A DNA stretch of 64,000 nucleotides, taken from sequence record PQ100635.1. One strand, 5' to 3'. The notes below the pieces were generated by a model. The model made no database searches. It saw nothing but the letters and a program-made list of their open reading frames with translations, and was not told where the DNA came from. Position 1 is the stretch's first letter. Each line of letters starts with the position of its first letter. The position numbers and the translations under genes were made by a program. This DNA comes from Escherichia phage PNJ-9. Of this stretch, positions 14,932 to 18,767 are shown one piece after another.

Positions 14932-14939
14932 TATAAATA
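14932..14939 (+). promoter_or_regulatory. late promoter (TATAAATA) upstream of gene 49
   Basis: Exact T4 late consensus directly 5' of the hairpin. Confidence 0.5.
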
Positions 14940-14962
14940 CCCTTATCTAATATGGTAAGGGT
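14939..14962 (+). promoter_or_regulatory. hairpin sequestering gene 49 Shine-Dalgarno
   Basis: ACCCTTA...TAAGGGT 7-bp stem; right arm contains the SD, 5 nt before the ATG. Confidence 0.5.
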
Positions 14963-14967
14963 TTATT

Positions 14968-15441
14968 ATGTTATTATCTGGCAAATTATACAAAGAAGAA
15001 AAACAAAAATTTTATGATGCACAGAATGGTAAGTGTCCTATTTGCCACCGTGAATTAGACCCTGATGTTCAAGGTAACCATCTTGACCACGACCACGAAT
15101 TAAACGGGCCAAAAGCAGGTAGAGTTCGTGGGTTACTCTGTAATCTGTGCAACGCAGCAGAAGGCCAAATGAAGCATAAGTTCAACCGTTCCGGTCTTAA
15201 AGGACGTGATGTCGACTACCTCGAATGGCTTGAAGCTCTTCTTGCTTATTTGAAACAAGATTATTCTGATAATAATATCCATCCTAATTTTGTTCCAGAC
15301 AAAACTAAAGAGTTCTCAAGACTAGGTAAAGAGGAAATGATGGCTGAGATGCTTCAAAGAGGATTTGAATATAATGAATCTGATACCAAAACACAATTAA
15401 TAGCTTCATTCAAAAAGCAGCTTAGAAAGAGTTTAAAATGA
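14968..15441 (+). CDS. 49: endonuclease VII (Holliday-junction resolvase)
   Basis: 157 aa; MLLSGKLYKEEKQKFYDAQNGKC and HLDHDHELNGPKAG match T4 gp49 from memory. Confidence 0.85.
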   Translation: MLLSGKLYKEEKQKFYDAQNGKCPICHRELDPDVQGNHLDHDHELNGPKAGRVRGLLCNLCNAAEGQMKHKFNRSGLKGRDVDYLEWLEALLAYLKQDYSDNNIHPNFVPDKTKEFSRLGKEEMMAEMLQRGFEYNESDTKTQLIASFKKQLRKSLK

Positions 15442-15980
15442 AAATTGAAAAAGAAATTGAAGGATTAATTCATAAAACTAATAAAGATCTTTTGAACGAG
15501 AATGCTAATAAAGATTCTCGTGTTTTTCCAACTCAACGGGACCTTATGGCTGGTATTGTGTCTAAGCACATTGCCAAAAATACGGTCCCGTCTTTTATTA
15601 TGAAAGCACATGAAAGCGGAATTATCCATTTCCATGATATTGATTATTCTCCTGCTCTTCCATTTACTAATTGCTGTTTAGTCGATTTAAAGGGGATGCT
15701 TGAGAATGGATTTAAATTAGGCAATGCTCAAATTGAAACGCCTAAATCGATTGGTGTTGCTACTGCAATTATGGCACAAATTACTGCGCAGGTTGCTTCC
15801 CATCAATACGGTGGAACTACATTTGCGAATGTAGATAAAGTCCTTTCTCCTTATGTTAAACGCACCTACGCAAAACATATTGAAGATGCAGAAAAATGGC
15901 AAATCTCTGATGCGTTGAATTATGCCCAATCTAAAACAGAAAAAGATGTCTATGACGCGTTCCAGGCGTATGAGTTAATT
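15438..15980 (+). CDS. nrdD: anaerobic ribonucleotide reductase NrdD, exon 1
   Basis: N-terminal NrdD-like sequence; reading frame hits TAA at the start of the intron; boundary +/- a few nt. Confidence 0.75.
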
Positions 15981-16989
15981 TAATTCAGGCTCATGTAAAA
16001 CCGGTCTAAACGGGGAACCTCTCTAGTAGACAATCCCGTGCTAAATGTTCTTTTGAACTAAATGCCTAACGACTAACCGTGATGAATGTAGCGGTGTAGA
16101 ATAGAAGCTAATGCTATTCGAAACGGCCGGCATCGAAAGATGAAGATATAGTCTAATCTGCATGGCGACATGCAGCAGTCATCTTGTATAAATAAGATTA
16201 TCTTATGAATACGAGGTGAAACAATGAAATGGATAAAAAGACGTTGTACTAAAATAAAAGATAAAGACGCATTTACATACTTAGTTAAGTTTTCTAATGG
16301 TGACATTTATATCGGTTATAAAAAATTTAGAACAATTAAAAACAAGCCCACAAACTGGAAAACTTACACAACGTCATCTAAGTATATAAATGAACGCTTA
16401 AAAACTGATACACCTACTAAATGGATAATTTTAAAAACATTTGATAGTTATAAAGATGCATTAAAACATGAAGAAGAGGTCATACGTAAATATTTTTATA
16501 GCAAAAAATGTTTAAATAAATCCATAGGCGGTAAAAAGTTTTATAAGCATCCGGATACTGAAGAACATATTCAAAAATTAAGAGATGCTCATAAGGGTAA
16601 AGTGTTATCCGAATCTCATAAAAACAATATAAAATCTTCTGTAGCTGAATATTATGCTAAAAACGGAAGATCTAAGGAACATGTGCAAAATAATATCAAT
16701 AGTCGAAAAAGTAAAAAACAAGTATCGATAAAGCTTAAAAATAAAACTTTTAGAAGTTTTAAAAAAGCAGCGGAATATTTAAATTGCACTGAAAGTGAAG
16801 TCGAAACTCATCCTCTTGTTTTGAGTATTAAGACTACTATTCATAAAGTTCCTGAATATGTGGTTGTTGACGGTATTAAGTATACGTCTTATATAGAAGC
16901 AGCTAAAGCGCTAAATTTTCATCCTAGCACTATAAAAGAACGTTGCATATCTATGGACTATCCAAATTTTGTTGTTTCATATAAACGGG
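15981..16989 (+). mobile_element. group I self-splicing intron in nrdD
   Basis: Begins TAATTCAGGCTC and contains TCTAAACGGGGAACCTCTCTAGTAGACAATCCCGTGCTAAAT, near-identical to the T4 td-type intron core from memory; ends on G; boundaries approximate. Confidence 0.75.
16187..16194 (+). promoter_or_regulatory. late promoter (TATAAATA) inside intron
   Basis: Exact consensus 30 nt upstream of the intron ORF. Confidence 0.5.
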
Positions 16990-16994
16990 CATGA
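16224..16994 (+). CDS. intron-encoded homing endonuclease (GIY-YIG-like)
   Basis: 256 aa; Y..NGDIYIGY N-terminal motif; located in intron 3' region like T4 I-TevII; GAGGTGA RBS. Confidence 0.65.
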   Translation: MKWIKRRCTKIKDKDAFTYLVKFSNGDIYIGYKKFRTIKNKPTNWKTYTTSSKYINERLKTDTPTKWIILKTFDSYKDALKHEEEVIRKYFYSKKCLNKSIGGKKFYKHPDTEEHIQKLRDAHKGKVLSESHKNNIKSSVAEYYAKNGRSKEHVQNNINSRKSKKQVSIKLKNKTFRSFKKAAEYLNCTESEVETHPLVLSIKTTIHKVPEYVVVDGIKYTSYIEAAKALNFHPSTIKERCISMDYPNFVVSYKRA

Positions 16995-18300
16995 ATTTGC
17001 GACTCATGCTGAATATAATGATGAAGTAAATACACTTTTCAGCTCTAATGGACAAACGCCTTTTGTAACAATTACATTTGGCACGGGAACTGACTGGACT
17101 GAACGAATGATTCAGAAAGCAATTCTGAAAAATCGTATTAAAGGTCTTGGCCGTGACGGGATAACTCCTATTTTCCCTAAACTTGTTATGTTCGTTGAAG
17201 AGGGTGTCAATCTTTATAAAGACGACCCGAACTACGATATTAAGCAGCTTGCTTTAGAATGCGCAAGCAAAAGAATGTATCCTGATATTATTTCAGTTAA
17301 GAACAATAAAGCTATTACTGGTTCTTCAGTTCCTGTTTCTCCGATGGGCTGTCGTAGTTTCTTGAGCGTATGGAAAGATTCGACTGGTAATGAAATTCTT
17401 GATGGACGTAATAATCTTGGTGTTGTAACACTGAATCTTCCTCGTATTGCATTAGATTCTTATATTGGAACACAATTCAATGAACAGAAATTTGTTGAGC
17501 TATTTAATGAACGAATGGATCTGTGTTTTGAAGCTTTGATGTGTAGAATTAGTTCTTTAAAGGGTGTTAAAGCAACTGTAGCTCCTATTCTTTACCAAGA
17601 AGGTGCATTCGGGGTTCGTCTTAAACCTGATGACGATATAATTGAGTTATTTAAAAATGGTAGAAGTTCAGTGTCCCTAGGATACATTGGTATTCACGAA
17701 TTGAATATTCTTGTCGGACGTGATATTGGACAGGAAATTTTAACTAAAATGAATGCTCGTCTTAAGCAGTGGACTGAAAGAACCGGTTTTGCTTTTAGTT
17801 TATATTCTACTCCTGCTGAAAACCTTTGTTATCGCTTCTGTAAACTTGATACAGAAAAATATGGAAGTGTAAAAGATGTCACCGATAAAGGCTGGTACAC
17901 TAACAGTTTCCACGTTTCAGTAGAAGAAAATATTACTCCATTTGAAAAGATTTCTCGTGAAGCCCCATATCATTTCATTGCAACAGGCGGTCACATTTCT
18001 TATGTTGAACTTCCAGATATGAAAAATAACTTAAAAGGTCTTGAGGCTGTCTGGGATTATGCTGCACAACATTTAGATTATTTTGGTGTTAATATGCCAG
18101 TAGATAAATGTTTTACATGTGGAAGTACTCATGAAATGACTCCTACTGAAAACGGATTTGTTTGTTCAGTTTGTGGAGAAAGTGATCCTAAAAAGATGAA
18201 CACCATAAGAAGAACATGTGGTTATTTGGGAAATCCGAACGAACGCGGATTTAATCTCGGTAAAAATAAAGAAATCATGCATAGGGTTAAACACCAATGA
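16990..18300 (+). CDS. nrdD: anaerobic ribonucleotide reductase NrdD, exon 2
   Basis: C-terminal glycyl-radical motif RRTCGYLGN and Zn-site CFTCGS...CSVCG; frame continuous with exon 1 after splicing. Confidence 0.8.
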   Translation, partial: HEFATHAEYNDEVNTLFSSNGQTPFVTITFGTGTDWTERMIQKAILKNRIKGLGRDGITPIFPKLVMFVEEGVNLYKDDPNYDIKQLALECASKRMYPDIISVKNNKAITGSSVPVSPMGCRSFLSVWKDSTGNEILDGRNNLGVVTLNLPRIALDSYIGTQFNEQKFVELFNERMDLCFEALMCRISSLKGVKATVAPILYQEGAFGVRLKPDDDIIELFKNGRSSVSLGYIGIHELNILVGRDIGQEILTKMNARLKQWTERTGFAFSLYSTPAENLCYRFCKLDTEKYGSVKDVTDKGWYTNSFHVSVEENITPFEKISREAPYHFIATGGHISYVELPDMKNNLKGLEAVWDYAAQHLDYFGVNMPVDKCFTCGSTHEMTPTENGFVCSVCGESDPKKMNTIRRTCGYLGNPNERGFNLGKNKEIMHRVKHQ

Positions 18301-18767
18301 ATTATGATAGATTTTATCCTTGCGATTTTGTGAATGGCCCTGGTTGCAGGGTCGTTCTTTTCGTTACAGGTTGTTTGCATAAATGCGAAGGGTGTTATAA
18401 TAAATCAACATGGAACGCTAGAAATGGTATTCCATTCACTGGTGAAACACTAGAACAATTGATTGAATGTTTGAATAATGATTATATAGAAGGATTAACT
18501 ATAACCGGAGGAGATCCTCTCTATCCTGATAACCGAGATGTTATTCATCGCATTGCTCAAACAGTAAAAAATCTTTATCCCAATAAAAGCATTTGGTTGT
18601 GGACAGGATATAAGTTTGAAGATATTAAACAACTAGAAATGCTTAAATATGTTGATGTTATTATTGATGGGAAGTATGAGAAAAATCTTCCGACTAAAAA
18701 GATGTGGCGAGGATCAGATAATCAGCGACTTTGGTCAAATACCGATGGGGTGTGGAAACATGATTAA
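18297..18767 (+). CDS. nrdG: anaerobic RNR activating enzyme NrdG (radical SAM)
   Basis: 156 aa; CLHKCEGCYN CxxxCxxC motif; ATGA overlap with nrdD. Confidence 0.85.
   Translation: MNYDRFYPCDFVNGPGCRVVLFVTGCLHKCEGCYNKSTWNARNGIPFTGETLEQLIECLNNDYIEGLTITGGDPLYPDNRDVIHRIAQTVKNLYPNKSIWLWTGYKFEDIKQLEMLKYVDVIIDGKYEKNLPTKKMWRGSDNQRLWSNTDGVWKHD

Follow-up and report, generated by a model that had tools for sequence, protein, structure and literature searches.

The closest described counterparts of the element analyzed here are two introns of bacteriophage T4, the nrdD (sunY) intron and the td intron. The T4 nrdD intron has a compact 5′ core made of helices P1 to P9, an open reading frame (ORF) located 3′ of P9, and a short terminal hairpin before its last base, the omega-G. 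I-TevII, which this intron encodes, is a characterized GIY-YIG endonuclease and introduces its double-strand break some way off the insertion site (PMC2988022; PMC1865063). In T4, the ribosome-binding sites of the I-TevI and I-TevII genes and of the I-TevIII gene are masked in read-through early and middle transcripts and exposed in late transcripts that start inside the hairpin (PMC2988022). The td intron, which carries the GIY-YIG endonuclease I-TevI, likewise has a late promoter and a ribosome-binding-site hairpin (PMC2988022). The window, that is, the whole 64,000-nt stretch of DNA that was analyzed, very probably contains a mobile self-splicing group I intron with an I-TevII-like GIY-YIG endonuclease in the nrdD gene of a T4-like (Mosigvirus-type) phage. 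The insertion site is identical to that of the T4 nrdD/sunY intron (AYE/YEV, with the slash marking the junction), and the architecture described above for the T4 nrdD intron is shared. For splicing, promoter use, and cleavage in this lineage, we infer the biochemical steps from the T4 system. All features described below are on the plus strand.

The local gene order, based on Pfam, is gene 49 (endonuclease VII; 14968-15441), followed by nrdD and then nrdG (18297-18767). The nrdD stop and the nrdG start overlap at 18297-18300 with no intervening gene, as they do in T2. Between nrdD and nrdG, T4 has the HNH gene mobC, and this place is taken by segH or another homing endonuclease in T6, SYGD1, and ZJUN4. 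An earlier note on this DNA had claimed that nrdD is interrupted, and Pfam bears this out: the NRDD profile is divided between an ORF at 15438-15983, which matches profile positions 1-141, and an ORF at 16969-18300, which matches positions 145-562 and also contains the glycyl-radical domain. The interruption is a group I intron of 1,045 nt (15976-17020) that is IA2-like in subgroup and has the sunY architecture. Exon 1 (15438-15975) comprises 179 codons and the first base of codon 180 (Pfam NRDD, 3.8e-40). Exon 2 (17021-18300) matches both Pfam NRDD (4.8e-123) and Gly_radical. An in-frame TAA (15981-15983), two codons inside the intron, ends the exon 1 frame and halts ribosomes on unspliced pre-mRNA.

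In silico excision of 15976-17020 produced a 1,818-nt ORF that encodes a 605-aa NrdD. This spliced product aligned gap-free with T4 NrdD (spliced) and with the naturally intronless nrdD of T2, T6, and ZJUN4. In other words, precise removal of the intron restores nrdD to continuity. The spliced joint reads GCG UAU GAG U/AU GAA GUA, which is translated as AYE-Y-EV (AYE/YEVNTLF). The final base of exon 1 is U15975, the 5′ splice-site U, and the final base of the intron is G17020, the omega-G. The borders were set from an alignment to the T4 nrdD join (NC_000866) and to intronless alleles, and moving either border by 1 nt resulted in a loss of the match to intronless nrdD. The earlier note, which could not fix the junctions by eye, had proposed alignment to the T4 nrdD intron as a check; the junctions are 15975/15976 and 17020/17021. 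The same note had placed the element at 15981-16994. The intron is indeed there, but it extends 5 nt further to the left and 26 nt further to the right, over 15976-17020; the range 15981-16994 starts at the in-frame stop that follows exon 1 and closes with the endonuclease stop codon. A 3′ junction at 17008, as expected if the intron had the 1,033 nt of its T4 counterpart, was rejected because it leaves four surplus residues in NrdD compared with T4 (AYESEYNDEV...). A start of exon 2 at TTG 16969 was also rejected as an artefact, because the open frame extends backward into the intron. We conclude that nrdD is properly annotated as a single gene with a splice, join(15438..15975,17021..18300).

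How well does the inserted RNA conform to a group I intron? The Rfam covariance model Intron_gpI (RF00028), which the earlier note had named as another check, matched 15944-16175 over the full model with 74 bits against a gathering score of 50. The E-value was 1.2e-18 on 1.2 kb and ~6e-17 (6.4e-17) on the whole window, and this was the sole Rfam match at E<=0.01 across the 64-kb window. The match was given by the 'evalue' mode, whereas the 'gathering' mode with fast filters listed nothing for either the whole window or the 1.2-kb region. The missed match is a filter loss, because the score itself passes. Therefore, a negative gathering scan is no proof that phage group I introns are absent. 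The Rfam alignment begins 32 nt within exon 1 and mis-assigns P1, which makes it unfit for setting the 5′ junction. Rfam matches of the snoRNA-like type at 17011-17099 (E=3-5) were dismissed as chance.

The catalytic core (16001-16175) was delineated using RF00028, a minimum free energy (MFE) fold, and a helix comparison with the T4 nrdD intron. The MFE fold of 15960-16180 yielded P1, P3, P4, P5, P6/P6a, P7.1, P7.2, P8, and P9. P1 (15969-15995) consists of 7 bp between the exon sequence UAUGAGU (15969-15975) and the internal guide GCUCAUG (15989-15995), and a pairing check placed U15975-G15989 as the wobble pair of P1 at the 5′ splice site. A P10 is possible between UUCA (15984-15987) and UGAA of exon 2 (17022-17025). 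The core helices are P3 (16001-16006/16125-16130), P4 (16010-16014/16035-16039), P5, P6/P6a (16047-16050/16055-16058), P7 (16071-16075/16149-16153), P7.1 (16076-16080/16091-16095), P7.2 (16099-16104/16114-16119), P8 (16131-16134/16139-16142), and P9 (16158-16164/16169-16175), with which the core ends. P7 is formed by GACUA/UAGUC and is the expected pseudoknotted helix. Far downstream, a 3′-terminal hairpin GCAUGA/UCAUGC (16989-17009) contains the endonuclease stop codon (16992-16994). The covariance score, the U-G wobble together with the omega-G, and the paired core helices are those of a group I intron.

A single blastn alignment spans the window intron (1-1045) and the T4 nrdD intron (1-1033). 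The two introns, 1,045 and 1,033 nt long, respectively, are ~66% identical in DNA sequence overall and ~72% identical in the core. The sequences of P6a, P7.1, P7.2, P8, and the 3′ hairpin are unlike those of the T4 nrdD intron and show compensatory changes. The exon 2 haplotype at +8 to +17 also differs from T4. The window intron is a diverged sister of the T4 nrdD intron, homologous to it from end to end and representing a distinct lineage at the same site.

The changes between the two introns bear on their folding. A helix-by-helix count found that all helices pair in both introns, and the P3-P9 core pairing, whose absence the earlier note had named as a refutation, is present with no helix broken relative to T4. 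In helices of equal length, 35 pairs were unchanged, 13 were compensatory, 3 were one-sided, and 0 were broken, in a comparison of two lineages only that is a tally of changes and not a statistical covariation test. Four of the six pairs of the 3′-terminal hairpin are compensatory with respect to T4 GUAGAG/CUCUAC. P7.2, P8, and the ribosome-binding-site hairpin have lengths unlike those in the T4 nrdD intron, yet they are hairpins in both introns. A MAFFT alignment of the ORF-deleted introns set P7.2, P8, and the hairpins out of register, and for this reason the pairs were counted helix by helix. The compensatory pattern would be hard to account for without selection on the fold.

The core also has a connection to the td intron. 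The likeness of the 5′ part of the insert to the T4 td core, which had been noticed earlier, agrees with the 74-bit Intron_gpI match and is complete over a 42-nt block (16005-16046) that runs from the 3′ part of P3 through the 5′ strand of P6. The block is identical to nt 43-84 of the T4 td intron (42/42; none of 100 shuffles gave a match), whereas ~10 of its positions are different in the T4 nrdD intron. Outside the block, the td core is only ~66% identical to that of the window. The td intron has an IA2-type core in common with the window intron but resides in another host gene at another insertion site. Furthermore, T4 td has a P2 helix and an ORF in the P6 loop, whereas the window ORF is located 3′ of P9, and I-TevI is ~24% identical to the window endonuclease. 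In the P7.1/P7.2/P8 region, the T4 nrdD intron is nearer to td than the window intron is.

Introns that Felixounavirus and Vequintavirus phages have at other codons of nrdD resemble further blocks of the window core. In these genera, with Salmonella phage D1-2 and Escherichia phage navn as examples, the cores are 70-80% identical to that of the window over ~130-140 nt; the nrdD introns reach 97.6% over one 42-nt block (megablast) and match Rfam Intron_gpI. The D1-2 and navn introns are found after ~aa 190 and ~aa 282-290 of NrdD, compared with aa 180 here. Some of the matching Felixounavirus and Vequintavirus records annotate HNH homing endonucleases at the match, but D1-2 and navn annotate none. 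At least one group I intron with a related core is present in the nrdD genes of D1-2 (L009 2267-2617) and navn (L010 1350-1606 and 2523-2628), and the annotation breaks the navn gene into four or more pieces. The reticulate pattern of core likeness could reflect an exchange among introns, or a strong constraint on a shared core. Bryk and Belfort reportedly obtained shuffling of td and sunY intron domains in laboratory T4 crosses in 1990. It is possible, though on balance doubtful, that the window intron is a natural chimera whose P3-P6 block came by gene conversion from a co-resident td intron, and that it encodes a second, functionally diverged I-TevII. As a part of this possibility, the target preference of the endonuclease may have shifted to match the exon 2 haplotype at +8 to +17. 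If true, the chimera would be evidence in nature for intron-domain shuffling.

The intron encodes a homing endonuclease of 256 aa (16224-16994) that is a homologue of I-TevII, with a GIY-YIG N-terminal domain and a NUMOD1 DNA-binding module. The ORF is intact and begins 48 nt past P9. The earlier note had described it as GIY-YIG-like, and Pfam concurs, with matches above the cut-offs to PF19835 SegE_GIY-YIG (26.6 bits, marginally above its cut-off of 25) and to NUMOD1 (25.3 bits against 22.8). The ORF also matched PHROG 314, 'homing endonuclease' (3.6e-29). Alignment with T4 I-TevII showed 144/257 identical residues (56%; E=1e-101) over residues 1-256 of both proteins. E83-E85 and N98 of the ORF align with the E75 and N90 region of I-TevI, in an alignment that is unreliable in its N-terminal part. 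A PDB sequence search with the endonuclease returned no match, an NCBIfam search found nothing, and a single-sequence AlphaFold model (pLDDT 49.8) was too poor for reading the fold.

The signals upstream of the endonuclease gene are arranged as in T4. A T4-type late-promoter motif, TATAAATA, is present at 16187-16194, 29 nt 5′ of the ATG, and overlaps the 5′ arm and loop of a hairpin. The late-promoter motif that the earlier note had seen before the ORF is therefore there, although the octamer alone is not rarer than chance (5 found in the window against 7.6 expected, with no enrichment). Because TATAAATA is not over-represented, the evidence for a promoter is positional. The motif and the hairpin occupy the same relative place as in the T4 nrdD intron with I-TevII, and the T4-like arrangement of late-promoter motif and endonuclease ORF that had been proposed is conserved in position. 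The ribosome-binding-site hairpin (16179-16219) has arms at 16179-16189 and 16209-16219 and an inner mini-hairpin at 16192-16206, and the Shine-Dalgarno sequence GAGG (16213-16216) lies within its 3′ arm. RNA folding gave the hairpin -17.8 kcal/mol (z=-4.3), and 1 in 200 shuffles was as good. The homologous hairpin of the T4 nrdD intron is CCUCGUAU/AUACGAGG, from which the window hairpin differs by an 11-nt loop insertion and by C-to-U changes that retain pairing as G-U. From this predicted layout, late transcripts would lack the 5′ arm of the hairpin that masks the Shine-Dalgarno sequence, as in T4.

Two stretches of the intron are invariant between the window and T4 nrdD-intron lineages. One is 16204-16222, 19 nt around the Shine-Dalgarno sequence, and the other is 16972-16989, 18 nt before the 3′ hairpin, with 0 differences. 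The ORF between these stretches has only ~62% DNA identity to T4. Such invariance at each end of the ORF hints at constraints on the RNA or on an operator. The homing site, TATGAGTATGAAGTAAATAC, was taken as the spliced junction (15969-15975 joined to 17021-17033), and TATGAATACGAGGTGAAACA (16204-16223), which lies upstream of the ribosome-binding site and overlaps it, resembles this homing site at 13/20 positions by eye in an ungapped comparison. A similar site has been proposed as the operator of I-TevII autorepression (PMC2988022). A second TATAAATA occurs at 14932-14939, directly followed by a hairpin of 9 bp (14939-14962), the end of which lies 5 nt ahead of the gene 49 ATG. This late-promoter and hairpin layout of gene 49 (endonuclease VII) matches that of the intron ORF.

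Over its first 25 kb, the window best matches Escherichia phage PNJ-6 (Mosigvirus) at 98.6%. The intron differs at only 0-1 of 1,045 sites among the window, PNJ-6, SHSML-52-1 (both phages being Mosigvirus), and SYGD1 (Tequatrovirus). The nrdD exons of the same four differ at 86-138 of 1,818 sites (5-8%), and at the exon rate such likeness of the intron has P<=5e-22. The exons of the window and PNJ-6 differ at 101/1,818 sites around an identical intron. Since PNJ-6 is 98.6% identical over 25 kb yet differs this much in its nrdD exons, nrdD is a local mosaic patch.

The sequences that flank the intron are informative as well. From -2 to +55, a single exon haplotype is common to the window, PNJ-6, SHSML-52-1, and SYGD1. 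It differs from intronless alleles at -2, +14, +17, +20, +23, +26, and +29, in each case by a synonymous change. The shared tract varies in length within exon 1, where PNJ-6 returns to the common haplotype from -8, and in exon 2 it never falls short of 55 nt. This exon 2 tract fits with cleavage on the same side, which is where I-TevII is known to cut. Position -2 is G in both intron lineages, where it pairs with C in P1, and A in all intronless alleles that were examined. A near-identical intron across diverged exons, together with common flanking haplotypes, appears to be the footprint of recent homing. Common ancestry instead of co-conversion could account for part of the shared exon haplotype.

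Among related records, ~615 have an uninterrupted junction, 44 have the window endonuclease, and ~24 have the T4 type. Because ~615 relatives have an uninterrupted junction, the intron is optional. A search of 50,697 phage records found the endonuclease in 44 at >=95% identity to the window and in ~24 at 55-57%, with nothing between. The 55-57% class consists of T4, T4T, RB59, PST, and fPS-2 and a truncated copy in U5. The exact window endonuclease is present on 144 public contigs, where it usually stands as 'homing endonuclease' between two nrdD fragments and is elsewhere named 'hypothetical protein' or even 'transposase'. Frameshifted or split copies of the ORF are found in some relatives, such as vB_EcoM_F1 (189+57 aa) and 236Ecol005PP (130+123 aa). 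Frameshifted relatives and an optional intron are the usual invade-and-decay cycle.

How would such an element work? As its structure suggests, the ribozyme core (P1-P9, the first 200 nt) would fold and take guanosine at P7, and it would then cut after U15975, which P1 holds in a U-G wobble. The 3′ terminal domain would place G17020 in the G site, and ligation of the exons would give the mRNA for the 605-aa NrdD. By analogy with T4, the hairpin would conceal the ribosome-binding site of the endonuclease in early and middle read-through transcripts. Late transcripts that start just past TATAAATA would be made without the 5′ arm of the hairpin and, again as in T4, would be translatable. The endonuclease would then cleave the intronless nrdD of co-infecting phages near the insertion site, probably on the side of exon 2. 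Repair templated by the intron-bearing genome would copy the intron along with flanking exon sequence, which is homing.

Two other explanations of the locus deserve consideration. The intron may splice but be passively inherited, with an endonuclease that is decaying or domesticated and is no longer an active homing enzyme. That the gene does decay is clear from the split and frameshifted copies in vB_EcoM_F1 and 236Ecol005PP, and the support for the GIY-YIG motif in the window copy is marginal. However, the copy in the window is of full length and aligns collinearly with the active enzyme I-TevII, and an identical protein is found on 144 contigs. Furthermore, a near-identical intron in two genera whose exons are 5-8% apart, together with shared haplotypes, needs recent transfer. 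We consider an inactive endonuclease improbable.

In the other explanation, the insert is a remnant that no longer splices or a free-standing cassette for an endonuclease, which would leave nrdD as a pseudogene or as a gene of two polypeptides. There is a precedent for the latter in nrdA of phage Aeh1, which is split by mobE. Most GenBank records imply this state, as they show two nrdD coding sequences (CDSs) and a separate endonuclease with no intron feature, and the exon 2 frame is open back to TTG 16969. But this TTG has no Shine-Dalgarno context and falls within the endonuclease gene. A complete group I core is present and exceeds the Rfam threshold, the compensatory changes show selection for pairing, and the U-G wobble and the omega-G occur exactly at the borders that restore an ungapped NrdD. 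The G at -2 in all intron-bearing alleles, as P1 pairing requires, also argues against loss of splicing. This explanation is the weaker of the two and has very little chance of being correct. A mobile, self-splicing intron with an I-TevII-like endonuclease is the preferred reading.

A search of the accessible literature found no paper on the window type as a second lineage of nrdD introns. The lineage is nevertheless already abundant in sequence databases, where it is usually mis-annotated. All four of the GenBank/RefSeq records with the intron that were inspected (4/4) give two nrdD CDSs and a separate endonuclease, with no intron or join. In three records, the second nrdD CDS begins inside the intron (L006 1001-3863, L007 1964-4826, and L008 15698-18560). 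The main importance of the finding is for annotation, in which nrdD is to be treated as a single spliced gene. The intron is a well-understood kind of element and does not challenge current understanding. Its scientific value is modest and lies in the availability, at one and the same site, of a naturally diverged counterpart to the T4 nrdD intron and to I-TevII. Studied side by side, the two could throw light on the co-evolution of a GIY-YIG endonuclease and its ribozyme with a fixed target, and also on whether the introns of one phage genome exchange core segments.
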